The notes beneath the pieces are model-generated. The model was given only the letters and a program-made list of their open reading frames with translations. It did not search any database and was not told the DNA's origin. From a virus (Duplodnaviria > Caudoviricetes), in the IMG/VR virus record IMGVR_UViG_3300029705_000041: 64,000 nucleotides of DNA; one strand, 5' to 3'. Positions 3,830 through 16,265 of this stretch are shown here, in pieces; position 1 is the stretch's first letter, and the number at the start of each line of letters is the position of its first letter. A program made the position numbers and the translations under genes.

Positions 3830-4606
3830 ATGAAAATTAAAGTGAATGTTGAATACAAAGAGGCTTATTTGCCGCCTAGGTGTAGAAAACTTAGGTATAA
3901 AAATGAGAGCAAGGAAGTGACTTTGAATATTAGGGAAATAACAAAGGATGATGCTCAAATAGCTTTTATTGTACATGATAAAGGACATTGTAAAAAATAT
4001 AATGACTACCATCCTGTTCCGGAAGATGATATTATATATTATTTTTATAAAGGTAAATTATATACTCTTGTAAATTGGAGTGATAAGCATTGTGGAAAAA
4101 CCGGTTTGCTTCCTGTAGAAGAATTGCATTGGTATATCAGAGGACGATATGATTATTGGAATGGTGATTTTGAAGCCAATAAAAAGTATTTTCAGGAGAA
4201 TGCCAGAGAATATTTAATTATTGACGGAAAAGTATATCAGAGAGCCGGAGAACCACGATATGTTGTTAATACATTTGGTTTAGGTCATAATCATGGTGGT
4301 ACTGGAATGTTTGTCGAAGAATTTTATAATCCAAATATTTCAAACGATAATTACTTTTCTGCACTAGACGGAGAACTTGCGGTTGCATATGCAAATAAAG
4401 TTGCTGCTGGGCGTGGAGATACAAATGATGTCGGAAGATTTAAAACAAGTATCGAAACATTAATGCCAGAAGTTGTAAAAGTTAAACCTAAAAAACAGCA
4501 TGGCAAGGGTGATAAATTTATAAATGACTTAGAAAAAGTAATTTCAAAATCAGATAGTGCAGTCGAAGCAGGATTATTATGTATTGCTATGGCTAATTTA
4601 CTTTAA
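3830..4606 (+). CDS. hypothetical phage protein
   Basis: 258-aa ORF with AGGAGG RBS. Confidence 0.7.
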   Translation: MKIKVNVEYKEAYLPPRCRKLRYKNESKEVTLNIREITKDDAQIAFIVHDKGHCKKYNDYHPVPEDDIIYYFYKGKLYTLVNWSDKHCGKTGLLPVEELHWYIRGRYDYWNGDFEANKKYFQENAREYLIIDGKVYQRAGEPRYVVNTFGLGHNHGGTGMFVEEFYNPNISNDNYFSALDGELAVAYANKVAAGRGDTNDVGRFKTSIETLMPEVVKVKPKKQHGKGDKFINDLEKVISKSDSAVEAGLLCIAMANLL

Positions 4607-5269: not shown

Positions 5270-6447
5270 AATTTGAATTAAATGCAAAGGAATTTAAAAA
5301 TGCAGCAGACAGAGCTATGGCGGTTATATCCAAGAAACCATCACTACCTGTTTTGGATAATTTAAAAATCACTTCGGGGGACGGAGCTGTAATTATAAGT
5401 GCATCAAACTTGGAAACTTTTGTTGATATTACTGTAGCTGCTCATATTATTGAGCCTGGAGAAGTTTATGTTAATAAAGCAAGTTTAGTAAAAGTATATG
5501 GTTTATCTGATTACATCACCATTGAAGCAAATGATAAAATTTTTAATGTTAAAAATGGAAAAAAGTGTTGTGAGGTAGCAACGGTAAAACTAGAAAAAGA
5601 AGAATACCCAAAAGCTCCGGTTATTGATGACAATGTTAATCGTATTTTTAAAGAATCTGAAAAAGACTTAATTAATGCGTTTATTTCTATGGATTGTATC
5701 AGGGCTAAAAATTCTACAAGACCAATTCTTGAAGGATTTAATATAAATGGAGCAGAAAAAAGAATTGCAGCCTGTGATGGCTTTAGATTGGCTGTTAAAA
5801 GACTTAATGGAGAAATTTTAGATTCCAATTTTAATATTACTATTCCTGGTGATGCTTGTGTAAATTTAAAAAAGATTGGAAACAATAAAAGAGATTATAA
5901 AGTAAATGTTTTTTATGGAAAACCTTCAGGTTGCACGGCTTATTTTGTTTTCTTTAAAGGTGTTGATTTTACATATTGTTGCAGAGTTCTTGAAGGAGAA
6001 TATCTGAATATTTCAAGCGTTATGAAAATAAATAAAACATACTCTTTTGAAATTTGTCCGGAAGAATTGGAGAATATCGCAAAAGAATATTCAAAAGAAA
6101 AAGATTCTCCAATGTATATTATTAAAAATGATAATAATTTGTACACGACAATTATATCAACTACATACCAGACAGCAGATATGCTAGAAAGTGCTGGAAA
6201 AATTGAGAATATGAGTGATGGATATTGTTTTTGTGCTAATCCGGCATATGTAAAAGAAGCAATGAGTTTATTTAAGGAAGATAAGGTGTTAGCTTATGGC
6301 GATGTAAAAACATCTGAAACAACCGGTGGAATGATTTCTCCAATTTGTTTTGAGAATGAAGAATACACAGCTCTTGTACTTCCTGTAAGAGCTACAATGG
6401 AAAGTGTAAAGAATCGCATGGAATTTATCAGCAAACTTCAAAGATAA
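5266..6447 (+). CDS. dnaN: DNA polymerase III beta sliding clamp-like protein
   Basis: 393 aa; KPSLPVLDNL, RPILEG, ACDGFRLA and C-terminal LVLPVR motifs typical of beta clamps. Confidence 0.8.
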   Translation: MKFELNAKEFKNAADRAMAVISKKPSLPVLDNLKITSGDGAVIISASNLETFVDITVAAHIIEPGEVYVNKASLVKVYGLSDYITIEANDKIFNVKNGKKCCEVATVKLEKEEYPKAPVIDDNVNRIFKESEKDLINAFISMDCIRAKNSTRPILEGFNINGAEKRIAACDGFRLAVKRLNGEILDSNFNITIPGDACVNLKKIGNNKRDYKVNVFYGKPSGCTAYFVFFKGVDFTYCCRVLEGEYLNISSVMKINKTYSFEICPEELENIAKEYSKEKDSPMYIIKNDNNLYTTIISTTYQTADMLESAGKIENMSDGYCFCANPAYVKEAMSLFKEDKVLAYGDVKTSETTGGMISPICFENEEYTALVLPVRATMESVKNRMEFISKLQR

Positions 6448-6508
6448 TACAGAAAAAGTCTTGACAAAACACAGAAGGTGTGCTATACTATAATAGTAAA
6501 TTAATTAC
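6447..6508 (+). promoter_or_regulatory. repeated-family promoter plus GTAA-N5-TTAC box
   Basis: CAGAAAAAGTC-TTGACA(6461)-17bp-TATACT(6484); GTAAATTAATTAC 6496-6508. Confidence 0.8.
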
Positions 6509-9217: not shown

Positions 9218-9284
9218 AATAATTCAGAAAAAGTATTGACAAACGAGAAAAGGTATGCTATAATAAGTATAGTAAATGAGTTAC
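9218..9284 (+). promoter_or_regulatory. repeated-family promoter plus GTAA-N5-TTAC box
   Basis: TTGACA(9236)-17bp-TATAAT(9259); GTAAATGAGTTAC 9272-9284. Confidence 0.85.
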
Positions 9285-9302: not shown

Positions 9303-11147
9303 ATGATTGAAATTATTTTAAATTCAGAAAAAGACGGTATCGAAATAAAGTTTGATAGTAAACCGGATGGAGCTATACTTAGTGCATTAAAAGAAAATGG
9401 ATTTCGCTGGCATAATCAAAAGAAGGTATGGTATGCAAAGAATACGGATGAACGTATGGAATTTGTCAAACAGCTTGATTCTGAAAAAACAACAACCAAG
9501 GCAGAAAAAGTAAAGATTGCTGAATATGATTTGTGGGAAATGACAAGAGTAAACTCTATCGGAAATAATGTGGATAAAAAGTTAATGACAAAAGAAATTG
9601 CAGCTAAAGTAAGAAAGCATATTAAAGACAGATTTCCGATGTGTCGATTCAGTGTTACAAGCGACTATTCTAGTCTTTATGCAAAAATTTTATCAAGTCC
9701 TTTTGCAAAGGATAGCCAGGAACTTGAAGCGATAGTGGAATATGTATATAGATATGCTGAAAGTTATAAATACTGCACCGATTATAACCCTTATGGTGAT
9801 TATGGTTCTTCTTATAATTTCTTCGGAGTTTATAAGTCAAATATAATTGATTATGAGTATGAGCAAAGAGAAATGACTGTTTCAGAATTAAATATGTCAG
9901 AAATTTTTAAAGCCAAAAAAGAAGAATTTGAAAGACAAGAAAAAATAAGAGAAGAAAAAGAATTTCAGGAACAGTTAAAGAAAAATGAAGAAGCAAGAGT
10001 TGAAGCTGAAAAGCAAAGAAAAATTGATGCCGAGAATCATGCCCTAGTAGAAAATAATATTAGCAAAATTAACACAGTTGATTATTTTGTTCTGGGGGTT
10101 ATTGAGCCTAATTATAATAAGTTGGATTGTGTAGATGATTATTCTGAAATTATAAAAGAAGGCAAATTTAAGACAGTTAATTGTAGAGTTACAAAAGAAG
10201 TTTATCTTACAAAAGAAATGTATGATATATTCAGAAATCAGATGATGGATGATTGGAGTTTCATCGAAGGAACCGGCGGCAGCCAGTGTGATGATTGGCG
10301 CATCAATTCTATGACTGATTATAATATGATGTCAGAACAAGAACGTGAAACTGTTGAATGGTATTCAAATGAGTGTGTTGCAATTTTTTGTGAAGATAAA
10401 TTAATGTTTATCGTAGATGCACAAGGTTATTCTTATTGTAGATATGTGTTAATTTTGGATGAAAAATCAAAAATTGTACCAGAATACAAAGTTCAACAAG
10501 CTATAAGTGAAGAAGAAAGAGAATCATTCAGAGAAAGTGCTGATGTATTAGAGGATGTAAGTGTCGGAATTATTATGAAACATTCATATGGCGATAAATG
10601 GAATACAGAAAAGTTTGATGAATATAAAGAAAAAATTAAGCACTGGATTTATGATAAGAAATTTAAGTTTAATGTCAATATTGTACGAGCAATAACGAAT
10701 GAAGATTTTAAGGTTGCTATGTATAAACTTTTAACCGAAGTCGATGGTATTCAAGAACAATTTGCGATGGCAAACTTGGAAAACGGTCAAAAGATAACCA
10801 TGATTTATATGAGTGATTTTGGCGGAATGGTAACACGTAAAGTTGTTTTCAAATCGTTTACTCCTACAACTTATGCACAGTATGATAATGCTGTTAGATT
10901 AGTAGTCAGACCAGAAAGAAAACGAAATGATTATGAAATGGTGTTTCATAAAGAAGTTATTATTTATAATGGTTGGATAGATTATCCGGAAGATTTGCTA
11001 TGGGAACAGCTTTCTTCTTCAAATGGCATGAGCTGTAAAAGAACCAGGTTTATGTCATGCGATAGAGAACAGTATGATGTTATAATGGATTACTTTGCAA
11101 AGAATGGAATCAAACCCATAATTAATACCTATAAACCTGTCTTTTAA
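9303..11147 (+). CDS. large hypothetical protein, possibly with polyvalent-protein-associated domains
   Basis: 614 aa; LKENGFRW..KKVWY and KEIAAKVRKHIK..FP..FSVTS segments resemble small domains of phage/plasmid polyvalent proteins; central coiled coil. Confidence 0.5.
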   Translation: MIEIILNSEKDGIEIKFDSKPDGAILSALKENGFRWHNQKKVWYAKNTDERMEFVKQLDSEKTTTKAEKVKIAEYDLWEMTRVNSIGNNVDKKLMTKEIAAKVRKHIKDRFPMCRFSVTSDYSSLYAKILSSPFAKDSQELEAIVEYVYRYAESYKYCTDYNPYGDYGSSYNFFGVYKSNIIDYEYEQREMTVSELNMSEIFKAKKEEFERQEKIREEKEFQEQLKKNEEARVEAEKQRKIDAENHALVENNISKINTVDYFVLGVIEPNYNKLDCVDDYSEIIKEGKFKTVNCRVTKEVYLTKEMYDIFRNQMMDDWSFIEGTGGSQCDDWRINSMTDYNMMSEQERETVEWYSNECVAIFCEDKLMFIVDAQGYSYCRYVLILDEKSKIVPEYKVQQAISEEERESFRESADVLEDVSVGIIMKHSYGDKWNTEKFDEYKEKIKHWIYDKKFKFNVNIVRAITNEDFKVAMYKLLTEVDGIQEQFAMANLENGQKITMIYMSDFGGMVTRKVVFKSFTPTTYAQYDNAVRLVVRPERKRNDYEMVFHKEVIIYNGWIDYPEDLLWEQLSSSNGMSCKRTRFMSCDREQYDVIMDYFAKNGIKPIINTYKPVF

Positions 11148-11151
11148 GGAG

Positions 11152-11562
11152 ATGAAAAATATGCCAAGCACACCACTAAAAAGAGAAAAAAGCGGAAGAA
11201 TATTATCTGATAAATATAAATCTGATGATTTAAAGCTATTTGAAGTATTTGAGATATATAAAGATGACTTGCAGAATGAATATGTAAATTTGTATTATGC
11301 TTTATTAGGATGGAAAGATTCACATTTAAGAGAATTATCCAAAGAGCAATACCGGAACCAGGAAATTATTAGTATTACAGATGTAGAAAATCTCTTAAAT
11401 AAATTCTGCAAAAAATTTGAATATGTTGACAAATCAAGAATACGGCTAATTGATAAAAACGATGGCAGTTTTACAATTATTGAAATCGCAGATGATAAAA
11501 AATCAGTGACTTATGAAGGCAGAGTCATTGGTGGACTGGATGAGTTGGAAAAGAGACTATGA
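11152..11562 (+). CDS. hypothetical protein
   Basis: 136-aa ORF with RBS. Confidence 0.55.
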   Translation: MKNMPSTPLKREKSGRILSDKYKSDDLKLFEVFEIYKDDLQNEYVNLYYALLGWKDSHLRELSKEQYRNQEIISITDVENLLNKFCKKFEYVDKSRIRLIDKNDGSFTIIEIADDKKSVTYEGRVIGGLDELEKRL

Positions 11563-12520
11563 AAAAAATTAAACAAATAAATAATCTTATTATTAAAGTA
11601 GATACATCTGAAGGAATTAATTATTTTGGAAGAATATCAGCAAATAAAAATTATAATAAATATTCAGTTTGGACACCGGATGGAATATGTTGGGAAGATG
11701 GTCTCACATTAAAAGAGGCGGAAATTTTTTGTAAAGAAACTAAAGATTTTTGTAGGAGGAAAAGATAATGATTATCAATCATATAGAGGAAATAGAAAAA
11801 GAATTACCACAACTTGCAGAGATTAGAGACACAGATAGCAATAGAGAGTTTGTACCATTTCAGAATTGGAATAACAGACTTAAAAGCATCTCAACAAAGA
11901 ATTTGCGCAAGTATAAAAGTGCATTAACAGGAACTTGTTTGGAGTCATATTTTAGACCTTGCATTATCTGTATTCATCCTGATGATAAATTGATAGAGAT
12001 AAACAAGGAAAAGTATAAGCTGATTCGTAAACACGTGATGTCAGAAGAATATCATAGATAAGGTGACAAAATGGATAAAAATACAATGTATGAAAGAGCT
12101 TATCCAAGACCAGCTAAAGGTGATAAAGAGGGTGAATATAGTTACTTGTTTACAGAATGTGGAAATACATGGTATTCAACTACTAAAAATCCAATGTATA
12201 GAGATAATTGTATTTGCCCTAAATGTCGAAAAATTATTAAGGTCATAATGCCTGGAGGTGAATAGTTGTGAGAGTAAAATATATGACCGTTTATGAAGGT
12301 CAACAGTATAATCTATCACAATATCCAAACTTCCATAAATCGGGAAGTGTAAGAGGTACGAAGAAACAGTTTTACGGAAAAGATGCTCTGATAGTTCGGA
12401 GCAGCAGTTATTATTATAATGTACCGGAAAAAGTTTACAATGCTGCACACTAATCAAAAACTTATATTTTTGCGGCTTATTTGGTTGGTTTAAATACTGA
12501 GATTAGAAATATCTAAGAAA

Positions 12521-12580
12521 GCCGAAATGTGAGAATATTGTTACTCACAAAAAACTATGTAATGGTAATTGTGATTTGAG
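12521..12580 (+). ncRNA. putative tracrRNA/scaffold-leader of CRISPR array 1
   Basis: GCCGAAA-TGTGAG...CTCA hairpin shared with 14169-14218; AACTATGTAAT (12553-12563) is complementary to repeat nt ATTACATAGTT; ends in ATTTGAG. Confidence 0.6.
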
Positions 12581-12802
12581 GTTTTAGAACTATAAGAAAT
12601 TACATAGTTACCAAACGACATATTTGGAGTGCCAAGAAAGATTGATGTTTTAGAACTATAAGAAATTACATAGTTACCAAACACAATGGAGTATTTATGT
12701 GATAAATATAGTGTTTTAGAACTATAAGAAATTACATAGTTACCAAACTATATGTAAACGTTCAATGTTAAAAGTAGCGTTTTAGAACTATAAGAAATTA
12801 CA
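12581..12802 (+). CRISPR. CRISPR array 1: 3 full + 1 truncated 36-bp repeats, three 30-bp spacers
   Basis: repeat GTTTTAGAACTATAAGAAATTACATAGTTACCAAAC at 12581, 12647, 12713; 24-bp partial at 12779. Confidence 0.95.
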
Positions 12803-12825
12803 AAGAGAAAGAAGGTAATAACAAA

Positions 12826-14124
12826 ATGAATGAAACTTGTGTTATTACGAGAAAAGTTAAATTGTTTCCTGTCGGAAATAAAGAAGAAGTTAATCGTGTT
12901 TATAAATATTTAAGGGATGGAATAGAGTCTCAAAACAAAGCGATGAATCAATATATGACTGCATTATATGTAGCAATGATACAAGAAGCAAGTTCGGAAG
13001 AAAGGAAAGAACTTAAAAATCTTTATCAAAGAATCAGCACAAGTAAAAAAGGAAGCGCTTATGATAAAACAATTGAATTTGCTAAAGGACTTCCAATGGG
13101 AGGCTCTATTACAACAAAAGTGAAATCTGATTTTGATAATGCAATGAAAAAAGGTCTTAAATATGGTAGAATCTCACTTCCTTCGTACCGAGACAAAAAT
13201 CCATTGCTTATTCATCGAGATTATGTAAGGCTTCTTGAAACAAACCCTCATTTAAACAATGGGATATATCATAATTATAAAAATTCGGATGAATTTAAAG
13301 AACATTTATATAAAGATGATTTTGAAATGTTCATTAAATTTGCAAATGATATTACATTTAAAGTTATTTTTGGAAATCCACATAAATCAAAAGAATTACG
13401 TTCTGTTTTTGGAAATATTGTGGACGGAATATATAATGTCGGAGGCAGTTCTATAGGAATTGATGGAAATAAGATTATTTTGAATTTATCTATTGAAATT
13501 CCAAAAAAGAAAGTAGAATTATCAGAAGATATTGTTTGTGGAGTTGACTTAGGCATTGCAGTGCCGGCAATGTGCGCTTTAAACACAGATGATTATAAAA
13601 GAATGAGTATCGGTTCGGCAAATGATTTTATTCGAGTGAGAACAAAAATTCAGGCTCAATACAAACGATTGCAAATGAGTTTAAAAAATACTAGTGGTGG
13701 TCATGGTAGAAAAAAGAAATTATCGCCCTTAAATAAATTTAAAGAATATGAGAAAAATTGGGTTAATAATTATAATCATATGGTTAGTCGCAGAGTAGTT
13801 GACTTTGCTATAAAAAATGGGGCAAAATATATTAACATAGAAAACCTTGAAGGATTTGGCAAGTCTAAACATACATATATTTTACGTAATTGGTCTTATT
13901 ACCAATTACAACAAGATATTATTTATAAGGCGAATATGGTAGGCATCGAAGTTAGAAAAGTTAATCCATATCACACTTCTCAAAATTGTAGCTGTTGTGG
14001 TCATTGGGAAGAAGGGCAAAGGCTTGACCAGGCACATTTTGTTTGTGGCTCATGTGGAGCGACACTGAATGCTGATTTTAATGCAGCAAGAAATATTGCA
14101 ATGTCAACAGATTTTATAGAATAA
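12826..14124 (+). CDS. cas12f: compact type V (Cas12f/TnpB-like) RNA-guided nuclease
   Basis: 432 aa; RuvC-I GVDLG, GGHGR, RuvC-II NIENL, WSYYQLQ, Zn ribbon CSCCG..CGSCG, RuvC-III NADFNAARNIA; arrays on both sides. Confidence 0.85.
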   Translation: MNETCVITRKVKLFPVGNKEEVNRVYKYLRDGIESQNKAMNQYMTALYVAMIQEASSEERKELKNLYQRISTSKKGSAYDKTIEFAKGLPMGGSITTKVKSDFDNAMKKGLKYGRISLPSYRDKNPLLIHRDYVRLLETNPHLNNGIYHNYKNSDEFKEHLYKDDFEMFIKFANDITFKVIFGNPHKSKELRSVFGNIVDGIYNVGGSSIGIDGNKIILNLSIEIPKKKVELSEDIVCGVDLGIAVPAMCALNTDDYKRMSIGSANDFIRVRTKIQAQYKRLQMSLKNTSGGHGRKKKLSPLNKFKEYEKNWVNNYNHMVSRRVVDFAIKNGAKYINIENLEGFGKSKHTYILRNWSYYQLQQDIIYKANMVGIEVRKVNPYHTSQNCSCCGHWEEGQRLDQAHFVCGSCGATLNADFNAARNIAMSTDFIE

Positions 14125-14168
14125 TATACATAGAAAACAATAATTTGTAAGTAACGGTAGGTTTTGCT

Positions 14169-14218
14169 GCCGAAAAGTGAGAAGATTAAAATTTTACTCA
14201 TTAAAGCTTGTATTTGAG
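14169..14218 (+). ncRNA. putative scaffold-leader of CRISPR mini-array 2
   Basis: GCCGAAAAGTGAGAAG...TTACTCA...ATTTGAG, homologous to 12521-12580. Confidence 0.55.
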
Positions 14219-14320
14219 GACTTAGAGCGGTATAAAAATACATAGGCACAAAATTAAAAGATGAGGCAATAAAAAAATTAATTGGATTTAGAGTAGTATA
14301 AAAATACATAGGCACAAAAT
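14219..14320 (+). CRISPR. CRISPR mini-array 2: two 36-bp repeats, one 30-bp spacer
   Basis: GACTTAGAGCGGTATAAAAATACATAGGCACAAAAT (14219) and GATTTAGAGTAGTATAAAAATACATAGGCACAAAAT (14285); the latter is 24/36 identical to the array-1 repeat. Confidence 0.75.
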
Positions 14321-14384
14321 CAATGAATTTGTTAAGGTAACAACAATTGTGAAAAATTATAAATACAATTAATTAAAGGTAACG

Positions 14385-14444
14385 CAGAAAAAGTATTGAC
14401 AATGAAAAAGTTTTATGATATACTATTTATAGTAAATGAATTAC
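14385..14444 (+). promoter_or_regulatory. repeated-family promoter plus GTAA-N5-TTAC box upstream of integrase
   Basis: TTGACA(14396)-17bp-TATACT(14419); GTAAATGAATTAC 14432-14444. Confidence 0.8.
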
Positions 14445-14448
14445 TATA

Positions 14449-15432
14449 ATGAAAGAAGGTAAAATTATGGCAGTTGCAACATTAAATCCAATCACAAAAG
14501 AGGAAGCTATCAGAAGTGGAAATATTGTTATGTTATTTCCAAATCAAGTTGCAAAACAAGAAGTAAAGCTAAAAAAAGATGGCACGCCTAAGAATATTAA
14601 ATGTAATAAAGTAAAAGGAAAAAAATCAGAAGTTTATCCTTTTGAAATTCAAGATATTAAAAAAATGATGAGCTATTTTAAAGAAAACGAATTATGGCTT
14701 CATTATTTGATTTTTGTATTAAGTTGCAATATGGCACGAAGAATAAATGATACATTGTCAATTAATTGGGAAAATATCTATAATCCTGAAACCGGCAGAA
14801 TGAGAGCTGATTTATTAGAAATAACAGAAGATAAGACAGATAAATTGGCGAATCCGAGAATTAATTCTGCTTGTCGTGCTGCAATTGAATTGTATATCAA
14901 AAAGACAGGTTGTAATCCTGCAAAAGATAATTATAAAACACCGGTTTTCCTTCAGCTTTCCGGAACGTACAAAGGTAAGGTAATTACAGATGACGGTTAT
15001 CGTAAAGCTCTGAAAAAAGCAGCGAAAGCTATAGGTATAGAATATAATATAGGCACACATAGTCCAAGAAAAAGTTTTGGTATGTTAAACCGTATGTTGC
15101 ATCCTGGAGATTATGATAGCATGGAAATATTGCAATCAATATATAATCATAGTGATGCTAAAACTACAAAACATTATATTGGATTAACTAAACAAAAAAT
15201 CAATAAGTATTACGATGATATGGGAGACTTTTTTGACGATTATATATTTGGGGACAAAGAATATACTTCCATTTCTGAAACTCCAATTATCAGTATTGAT
15301 TCAAATGATTTTAGAGATGTGATTAAAGCTGCATATGAAGCAGGAAGAAATAATTCTGGAGAAGAAGATATTTCAATTCATATTGATGCCATAAATACAA
15401 TTTTAAGCATGGTGGAGCAGCTTGCAAAGTAA
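14449..15432 (+). CDS. tyrosine recombinase/integrase
   Basis: ARRINDTL (R), KT, HSPRK (H-x-x-R), YNHS..TTKHY (H,Y) catalytic set. Confidence 0.9.
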   Translation: MKEGKIMAVATLNPITKEEAIRSGNIVMLFPNQVAKQEVKLKKDGTPKNIKCNKVKGKKSEVYPFEIQDIKKMMSYFKENELWLHYLIFVLSCNMARRINDTLSINWENIYNPETGRMRADLLEITEDKTDKLANPRINSACRAAIELYIKKTGCNPAKDNYKTPVFLQLSGTYKGKVITDDGYRKALKKAAKAIGIEYNIGTHSPRKSFGMLNRMLHPGDYDSMEILQSIYNHSDAKTTKHYIGLTKQKINKYYDDMGDFFDDYIFGDKEYTSISETPIISIDSNDFRDVIKAAYEAGRNNSGEEDISIHIDAINTILSMVEQLAK

Positions 15433-15630
15433 AGGAAAAGATAAAATGTTTGAAGAAATATTAAGCGCAACAAGAACTATAAAAAATCTCCATCCGCAAT
15501 TACGGTATCAGCAGATTATGAGTATAGCTGCAAGTAAGGGCGGATGGGATAATAAAGACTTATTTTATTGTCCTGATGAAGTTCTTCTTAAAGGATTGAA
15601 TAAGTTAATCGAAGAAGAAAATAAAATTTA

Positions 15631-15699
15631 AAAATAATGTAGAAAAAGTATTGACAAATAGAATAAAATGTGATATACTGTCTATAGTAAATGAATTAC
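15631..15699 (+). promoter_or_regulatory. repeated-family promoter plus GTAA-N5-TTAC box
   Basis: TTGACA(15651)-17bp-TATACT(15674); GTAAATGAATTAC 15687-15699. Confidence 0.8.
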
Positions 15700-15806
15700 T
15701 AAATTAATAGAAAGGGAAAAAAGTGATGAAACTATGTAGAAACACAGCAAGGGCTGGATAAGTTAATTTAATATAATATATAAAGCCCTCATAAAATAAA
15801 TATTAG

Positions 15807-16265
15807 TTGACTATAGATTTTCCGCCGTGGCAAGCAGTTTGTTACATAGATGTCACAAAAGGAGCGGATAGTATGTCAAACAACAATGTAATTTCTCGTC
15901 CAAAATGCGGCGAAATCTGGATGTGTAATCTAACTACAAAAGAGGGCAGCATTCAAAGCGGTTATAGACCGGTTTTCATCTTGTCGAATAATAAGAACAA
16001 TACATATAGTCCTACGTTAAACATAATTCCAATAACAAGTAAAATGAATAAACGTAGACTTCCGGTACACGTTGAATTATGGAGCTATCAAGATTATGGC
16101 TTGAAAACACCAAGCACGATGTTGATTGAACAAATTATGACGATTCCGGTAGAGCATCTTGATATGTGTGTTGGACAGATTTCCGACAGCAAGATATTGA
16201 GCAGTATTTGCAAAGCAATCGAAATTCAATTTCCGATTATGCAACTTACATCTATGTGTTGTTAA
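15807..16265 (+). CDS. mazF: PemK/MazF-family endoribonuclease (start probably ATG 15873)
   Basis: GEIWMCNL...GSIQSGYRPVFILSNNKNN..SP..IIPITS...LPVHV...EQI motifs. Confidence 0.85.
   Translation: MTIDFPPWQAVCYIDVTKGADSMSNNNVISRPKCGEIWMCNLTTKEGSIQSGYRPVFILSNNKNNTYSPTLNIIPITSKMNKRRLPVHVELWSYQDYGLKTPSTMLIEQIMTIPVEHLDMCVGQISDSKILSSICKAIEIQFPIMQLTSMCC

Follow-up and report, generated by a model that had tools for sequence, protein, structure and literature searches.

Two candidate guide RNA scaffolds, each apparently matched to its own mini-array, flank a Cas12f1-type gene of a gut phage

Cas12f1 of type V-F1 is an asymmetric homodimer that assembles on a single guide RNA. The core of this guide RNA consists of stem 1, a pseudoknot and the repeat:anti-repeat stem 5 (PMC12255294). 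In the characterised V-F1 systems, cas12f1 and the array have the tracrRNA gene between them, and the tracrRNA appears as an RNA of its own alongside crRNAs of 40-50 nt (PMC8548392; PMC10090079). Within the Cas12f1 clade, fusion of the tracrRNA to half a repeat has re-created a single guide, and whole scaffold-guide units have been duplicated (PMC10691335; PMC13472631); the RpoE-linked dead Cas12f carries such a tracrRNA-half repeat fusion (PMC10691335). On the side of the transposon-borne relatives, the 3' end of the prokaryotic omegaRNA scaffold forms a pseudoknot next to the guide (PMC13565253). The TranC systems are described as transposon-CRISPR intermediates whose lineage comes from the IS605/IS607 TnpB proteins and which use reRNA and CRISPR RNA (PMC13565253; 10.64898/2026.03.27.714800).

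The locus considered here lies in a window of 64 kb (the whole stretch of DNA that was analysed, to which all positions refer unless a related locus is named). The window is AT-rich (30% GC) with a positive GC skew throughout, the long open reading frames of the examined region all lie on the + strand, and the sequence resembles a section of a large phage genome. Two clusters on the + strand between 32572 and 39014 hold ten tRNA genes (Gln x2, Ser, Arg, Leu x3, Lys, Pro, Gly); tRNA gene clusters are typical of large phages. The segment from 12.4 to 14.4 kb contains, in this order, a non-coding structured stretch, array 1 (12581..12814), a cas12f1-like gene for a 432-aa protein (P0001; 12826..14124), a second structured stretch, array 2 (14219..14320) and an integrase gene; the arrays and the cas12f1-like gene are on the + strand. 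Array 1 has 36-nt repeats at 12581, 12647 and 12713 with three 30-nt spacers, and a fourth, degenerate repeat (12779) extends into the ribosome-binding site of the gene; array 2 has two repeats (14219-54 and 14285-320) and one 30-nt spacer (14255-84). The spacers of the two arrays, with their four and two repeats, are unrelated, and the family as a whole keeps to repeats of 36 nt and spacers of 30 +/- 1 nt. An Rfam scan of 11000-16000 returned only noise and matched no known RNA family. A promoter-like motif, CAGAAAAAGTATTGAC, occurs in ~17 strong copies in the window; combined with a TG-extended -10 box it has 19 copies at three mismatches or fewer, against 1.9 expected, all of them on the + strand (positions including 850, 9225, 14385, 15640, 26409, 32401, 35929, 46071 and 59939). 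It is probably the promoter family of the phage.

The protein encoded between the two arrays is matched end to end by the PADLOC profiles for Cas12u3 (3e-115; residues 6-431 against 2-392 of 398) and Cas12f (3e-113), and it also matches the Pfam domain Cas12f1-like_TNB (4e-22) and guided_TnpB, a broad NCBIfam model (165 bits against a cut-off of 100 bits). Its best solved relatives are 8HR5 (1e-78; a 497-aa chain deposited as 'Transposase'), which we take to be CnCas12f1, Al3Cas12f (9NZO) and RhCas12f (9NZP). The RuvC triad D241/E339/D417 and the zinc-finger cysteines are invariant among 17 homologues; the protein unites the length of V-F1/V-U3 effectors (~400-550 aa), a TnpB-like RuvC of the D-E-D kind, a zinc finger and a full-length profile match. 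Judged from these features, the 432-aa gene product is a full-length type V-F1 (V-U3) Cas12f1. It has more than 1,500 homologues, which stem mostly from gut metagenomes and viral contigs. Close relatives are syntenic in related phages, where they stand beside integrase and PemK genes, and the flanks of the loci examined contain no called tnpA; the window itself holds one such gene and only the two cassettes. Given the single syntenic place and the lack of a nearby tnpA, the gene is a domesticated type V-F1 effector rather than a mobile TnpB.

An earlier, sequence-only reading of the locus had pointed to a leader-like motif that stands ahead of both arrays and doubles as a tracr- or omega-like scaffold. 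The motif is present at the positions then given, in two copies that align: copy 1 (GCCGAAATGTGAGAA...TTACTCAC...TTGTGATTTGAG) at 12521-12580 and copy 2 (GCCGAAAAGTGAGAA...TTACTCAT...TTGTATTTGAG(G)) at 14169-14218, each ending right at repeat 1 of its array. While these positions stand, the 5' limits need to be moved, as the element is larger and covers ~12473-12580 and 14155-14218. In cassette 1, stem 1 (12473..12524) pairs CGGCUU at 12473-78 with AAGCCG at 12519-24 in both the covariance-model alignment and the centroid fold, and its loop contains the pseudoknot sequence UUUGG (12480-84) followed by a 36-nt insertion. The stem 2 hairpin (12529..12548) pairs GUGAG at 12529-33 with CUCAC at 12544-48. 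The anti-repeat AACUAUGUAAU (12553..12563) is complementary to 12599-12609 of repeat 1 and to the corresponding stretches of repeats 2 and 3. The junction ATTTGAG (12574..12580) lies directly 5' of repeat 1 (ATTTGAG/GTTT), and the repeat tail CCAAA (12611-15) pairs with the stem-1 loop. Cassette 2 has the same parts: stem 1 (14155..14172; CGGUAG at 14155-60 with CUGCCG at 14167-72), a pseudoknot loop UUUUG (14162-66) identified by the covariance-model alignment, the fold and covariation, a stem 2 hairpin (14177..14201; GUGAG at 14177-81 with CUCAU at 14197-201) that is extended in the fold, an anti-repeat GCUUGUAUUU (14206..14215) that overlaps the ATTTGAG junction (14212-18), and a repeat tail CAAAA (14249-53) that pairs with the cassette 2 stem-1 loop; all these features are on the + strand. 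The 36-nt insertion of copy 1 contains no match to a promoter consensus, and the idea of a promoter within it was dropped for this reason.

The minimum-energy folds of both window cassettes contain stem 1, stem 2 and a helix between the anti-repeat and the repeat in cis, with z-scores of -2.8 and -2.6. The TGAG/CTCA hairpin that had been noticed at the outset is part of both folds, as GTGAG/CTCAC in copy 1 and GTGAG/CTCAU in copy 2. The 11-nt anti-repeat attributed to copy 1 also proved correct, since AACTATGTAAT matches the reverse complement of ATTACATAGTT in repeats 1-3 without a mismatch; its pairing sites occur only four times in 64 kb (the anti-repeat and the three repeats), compared with 0.1 expected by chance. 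For copy 2, by contrast, the short TGTATTT match previously described understates the pairing: in the predicted fold, in which the minimum-energy and centroid structures agree, GCUUGUAUUU at 14206-15 forms 10 bp rather than 7 with AAAUAC[AU]AGGC at 14236-47, in a helix that has one G-U pair and a bulge of 2 nt. A further hairpin 5' of stem 1 is clear in the relatives L002, L115, L026 and L028 (L numbers denote related loci) and weak in both window copies; in cassette 2 of the window, the 5' hairpins of the relatives are reduced.

A covariance model from homologous loci had been named as a check on the sequence-only reading, and such a model (R1) was built from a seed of nine cassettes from which window copy 1 was left out. 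R1 recovered copy 1 with 69.8 bits (E 4.5e-11) over 12466-12616, including the 36-nt insertion in the stem-1 loop, which excludes chance for this copy, and scored copy 2 at 96 bits; over the window it found no further site beyond these two copies, apart from the repeats themselves. Across 84 related loci, R1 detected 43 cassettes beside homologous genes, every one of them on the strand of the Cas12f gene, and the element is conserved. At least two cassettes are present in 10 loci, mostly flanking the gene on both sides, and L002 has four. From 5' to 3', the scaffold of the relatives consists of stem 1 (CGGnnn-AUUUkG-nnnCCG), an AAnn linker, stem 2 (GUGAG-loop-CUCAC), AAAA, the anti-repeat, a short linker that ends in AUUUGAG, and the first repeat with its ATTACATAG core. 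This core pairs with the anti-repeat, and the last bases of the repeat (CAAAA, CCAAA, CUGAA etc.) are complementary to the stem-1 loop.

Covariation was counted in the covariance-model alignment, as MAFFT, applied to 15 first cassettes, misaligned two that carry stem-1 insertions. Among 41 distinct sequences, 96.9% of the cells are paired and double changes occur in 21 of the 25 pairs; none of 500 shuffles matched the observed values, and slid partners were paired in 34-50%. Five of the six pairs of stem 1 and all nine pairs of the anti-repeat:repeat helix covary, and it should be noted that the alignment was fitted to the modelled stems 1-3, so that the pair counts for these helices are inflated in favour of structure. 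The pseudoknot helix, which is absent from the R1 model, is exempt from this effect; it is 92.7% paired, and four of its five pairs covary. At least six loop:tail codes exist (UUUUG:CAAAA, UUUGG:CCAAA, UUCAG:CUGAA, UUUGA:UCAAA, UUUUA:UAAAA, UGUGA:UCACA), and the scaffold stems are conserved while the loops vary freely. Since the covariation extends to a pseudoknot that was not modelled, these comparisons provide strong evidence that the 'leader' and the repeat form one RNA structure. Covariation and folds thus bear out the proposal of a structured tracr- or omega-like scaffold that pairs with its own repeat ahead of each array, and we hold it to be highly probable that the duplicated 'leader' is a Cas12f guide scaffold, equivalent to a tracrRNA. 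In the mechanism that we envision, this scaffold would comprise stem 1, stem 2 and the anti-repeat, possibly with the weak 5' hairpin ahead of them, and it would hold the repeat at two points, the anti-repeat gripping the ATTACATAG core and the stem-1 loop the spacer-adjacent end of the repeat through the pseudoknot.

Other readings of the element have to be weighed against this one. It could be an ordinary CRISPR leader, with promoter and adaptation signals, that was copied along with the array and whose RNA structure has no function; its ATTTGAG/GTTT boundary is the known leader-repeat junction of type II-A systems (PMC5382924), and spacers do differ among phages whose effectors are identical or 99% identical. 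A leader of this kind offers no account of compensatory changes in 21 of 25 pairs, among them long-range pairs to the repeat tail, or of stems that are kept while loops drift, and no sigma-70 consensus better than 9/12 occurs in or just before the element, so that we give this reading hardly any weight. An equally small chance attaches to the right-end omegaRNA of a mobile IS200/IS605-type TnpB with arrays that are incidental tandem duplications. Cassette 2 does sit just 3' of the gene, in the position of an omegaRNA, the guided_TnpB model is passed well above its cut-off, and relatives are labelled 'transposase' in their sources; against this stand the end-to-end fit to the Cas12u3 and Cas12f profiles, the regular 36/30 geometry of arrays with unrelated spacers, and the one syntenic place beside integrase and PemK genes without a neighbouring tnpA call in any of the loci examined. 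A regulatory or decoy RNA, acting as a self-guide against the cas12f promoter or ribosome-binding site or as an anti-CRISPR mimic of the repeats of a host system, is very unlikely as well. It would draw on the degenerate fourth repeat of the window, which overlaps the ribosome-binding site, on a single upstream repeat in L024 that runs directly into ribosome-binding site and start codon, and on the resemblance of the repeat ends to type II-A repeats, but the catalytic residues of the nuclease are all present and invariant, scaffold and cognate repeats covary in the fashion of a guide RNA, and the spacers turn over like those of immune arrays. In L024 (1357-1500), the 'guide' position of the single upstream repeat is taken by the ribosome-binding site and start codon of cas12f; this cassette and the fourth repeat of the window hint at a possible link between guide cassettes and effector expression.

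Set beside the characterised V-F1 systems, a Cas12f guide scaffold ahead of each array finds its closest counterpart there. The effector belongs to the same family, end to end, as 8HR5, RhCas12f (9NZP), Al3Cas12f (9NZO), SpCas12f1 and AsCas12f1, an array adjoins the effector gene in the window and in most relatives, and the locus is without adaptation genes of its own. Next to the array lies what appears to be a tracrRNA-type scaffold with an anti-repeat, and its predicted stem 1 and pseudoknot at the spacer-adjacent end of the repeat follow the published design (PMC12255294). The order of cassette 2 is canonical, given that the V-F1 tracrRNA lies between cas12f1 and the array (PMC8548392), whereas cassette 1 is unusual in its upstream position, since almost all conserved Cas12 arrays lie downstream (PMC10691335). 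The locus differs in having a second scaffold-array cassette upstream of the gene with its own co-evolved code; in addition, the scaffold extends only ~75-110 nt before the repeat, in contrast to 153-169 nt for the tracrRNAs of SpCas12f1 and AsCas12f1, and abuts the first repeat via ATTTGAG, the arrays are limited to 1-5 repeats, and a gut phage carries the system.

The sequence-only reading had also suggested that such a guide might be an intermediate between the TnpB omegaRNA and a tracrRNA:crRNA pair; taken in an evolutionary sense, this probably has the direction reversed. V-U3/Cas12f1 profiles fit the protein end to end, and most of its relatives carry arrays: in 63 genome loci with relatives at ~30-65% identity, arrays are the rule, usually downstream of the gene, with a period of 61-76 nt (typically ~66) and up to at least 15 repeats. 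On this sequence evidence, the phage family appears to sit within the CRISPR-associated clade, a cis-fused, omega-like state is more likely derived than ancestral, and the mini-arrays and omega-like single guides have more likely arisen by secondary reduction, as has been described for the RpoE-linked dead Cas12f (PMC10691335). There are likenesses to TnpB omegaRNAs (e.g. ISDra2): one scaffold lies 3' of the gene, the 3' end forms a pseudoknot beside the guide (PMC13565253), and the one-repeat or short-hairpin cassettes of relatives resemble omegaRNAs. In contrast to the OMEGA TnpB of IS200/IS605 elements, the window locus has no transposon context, possesses true spacer-repeat arrays (L004, L012 and L002 include the form that lacks them) and carries a scaffold upstream of the gene too. 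With TranC (Jin et al., Cell 2025, PMID 41027434), the locus shares an effector of TnpB size, small arrays, some of which occur in phages, a guide that is interpretable as an omegaRNA divided into tracr and crRNA, and a presumably similar working mode; it differs in a protein that fits Cas12f1/V-U3 profiles rather than a TnpB lineage and in distant relatives with larger arrays. The RpoE-associated dead Cas12f and the 'omega-like arrays' of Cas12f1/V-U40-43 (PMC10691335; PMC13472631) are similar in their scaffold-repeat fusion and unit duplication, but the window nuclease has an intact catalytic triad, full 36-nt repeats have been kept and the spacers turn over.

In the window, the code of cassette 1 is UUUGG:CCAAA with the anti-repeat AACUAUGUAAU, and that of cassette 2 is UUUUG:CAAAA with GCUUGUAUUU; the two codes differ and each is self-matched, so that each scaffold fits its own array better than the other. 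Pseudoknot codes differ between cassettes in eight of the ten distinct multi-cassette loci (window/L001, L002, L022, L024, L033, L034, L043 and L115; the exceptions are L012 and L038). This comparison supports the view that the two copies would be functional paralogues, each co-evolved with its own array, and one Cas12f protein evidently accepts several pseudoknot codes. A single nuclease would in this way be fed by two co-evolved guide channels. The explanation as a whole, a V-F1 Cas12f1 whose guide scaffold stands before each mini-array, can fold in cis and serves two matched channels, appears likely to us, though a shade less assured than the nature of the scaffold taken by itself; it draws on sequence, conservation, covariation and protein family, and it infers co-transcription, folding in cis in vivo, loading of Cas12f and targeting of DNA. 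That one gene stands between two cassettes, each matched to itself, suggests that at the pseudoknot the protein recognises RNA shape rather than sequence, a property that would bear on the building of orthogonal guide sets, and the compact scaffold, with pairing rules that can be read from covariation, may inform guide design for nucleases of 425-450 aa. No new category is opened, as Cas12f1 is already known to have both this RNA design and the gene-tracr-array order; the RNA is real, conserved and of a familiar kind, with a layout in two cassettes as its unusual feature, and the locus offers a well-documented natural case of a Cas12f tracrRNA-type scaffold that is physically joined to its array. 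In L002, four cassettes (1948-2066, 2878-2951, 4342-4470 and 6393-6468) surround one cas12f gene over a span of 4.5 kb, and two of the four are of the short-hairpin, omega-like type; in this relative, guides are therefore multiplexed by the copying of whole cassettes as well as by arrays.

Whether scaffold and repeat act as one molecule or as two is a separate matter. Anti-repeat and repeat 1 are separated by a linker of only ~3-17 nt on the same strand, and in a scan of 12000-14600 the interval between scaffold and repeat showed neither a terminator-like site nor a strong promoter consensus, while sigma-70 matches in or just before the scaffolds did not exceed 9/12. The predicted folds of both cassettes, in which the anti-repeat:repeat helix closes in cis, also favour one molecule. 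Copies of the phage promoter motif flank the Cas12f block at 9225 and 14385 with none between them, and we infer that the whole block is probably one transcript. With so short a linker and no strong promoter or terminator consensus in it, a read-through transcript should fold in cis, and it would then constitute a natural single guide in which scaffold, repeat 1 and spacer 1 are joined; for repeats 2 and 3, pairing with a scaffold would have to take place in trans or once the transcript has been processed. Among relatives, the forms extend from one-repeat, omega-like guides to arrays of five repeats; cassettes with a single repeat occur in L002, L024 and L004, a short closing hairpin replaces linker and repeat in L004, L012 and L002, and such cassettes can act only as single guides, in cis. 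The prediction that a cis scaffold-repeat 1-spacer 1 guide is a functional species therefore has, in our estimate, slightly better than even prospects. Its main competitor, to which we accord a smaller though appreciable share, is a classical tracrRNA that works solely in trans, is cut from the array (e.g. at the anti-repeat:repeat duplex) and serves all repeats equally, so that its position would have no meaning. Separate tracrRNAs and short crRNAs are what characterised V-F1 systems with the same gene-tracr-array order yield (PMC8548392; PMC10090079), for which reason cis linkage could be a precursor state only, and repeats 2 and 3 retain full complementarity to the scaffold. Such a tracrRNA, however, would have no second repeat to serve in the one-repeat and short-hairpin cassettes of L002, L004, L012 and L024, only one scaffold is present per array transcript, and no strong promoter or terminator consensus parts scaffold from array.

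The boundary between scaffold and array deserves separate consideration. ATTTGAG/GTTT is the leader-repeat junction of type II-A group 1, in which the leader end and the first repeat are required for spacer integration (PMC5382924). In the window, ATTTGAG at 12574-80 is followed by GTTTTAGA and at 14212-18 by GACTTAGA, so that the group-1 junction is combined with a 36-nt repeat in both cassettes; across 29 cassettes the junction is exact in 13, [AG]TTTGAG is present in 17, and most of the remaining cassettes come close to the exact form. The AUUU of the junction can also pair with AAAU of the repeat in the folds, and an RNA-based reason for its conservation is accordingly conceivable. Among these 29 cassettes, the final base of the junction changes in step with the initial base of the repeat: most have GAG|G, and L024, L026, L025, L043 and L118 have GAC|C.

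Spacers are entirely different between L118 and L120, whose effectors are identical, and between the window and L001, whose effectors are 99% identical, and Cas1 is absent from five related viral records, one of them 95% complete. This combination fits loading by host machinery, and it suggests that the spacers are acquired in that way. A type II-A locus proper would have cas9-cas1-cas2-csn2 at its side, and no Cas1 is present among the genes flanking the locus. In five bacterial genomes that carry relatives, a search with the TTTGAGGTTTTAGA junction uncovered no host II-A array; the single exact match was the cassette itself, and matches were no commoner than those of a reversed-pattern control. 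We put forward only tentatively, as an unlikely but consequential idea, that the scaffold is dual-purpose, the loop between anti-repeat and repeat 1 being at the same time a II-A junction at which host Cas1-Cas2-Csn2 inserts spacers into a single-guide gene. If so, each acquisition would place the newest spacer in the cis position and move older ones into trans, and cassettes with orthogonal codes would be two independently loadable guide channels for one nuclease. As for targets, no significant protospacers were found in GenBank phages for the arrays of relatives and window array 1, or in IMG/VR for the first 20 nt of the three array-1 spacers, and ~50 family spacers compared with all collected family loci and the window gave self-matches only.

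Scaffold and repeat sequences also vary in copy number among relatives. An anti-repeat unit, CTATGTAAA, is repeated four times in tandem (the last copy partial) in L118 and L119 (L118:2540-2680) and twice in L120 (L120:2540-2662); as its copy number differs despite an identical effector, the scaffold linker itself is unstable. In a 75%-identical relative (L122:1120-1200), the upstream array ends in three tandem copies of CTAACATAGTAACCAAAC, the 3' part of the repeat, before the start of the gene, and this looks like slippage of the handle-encoding half.
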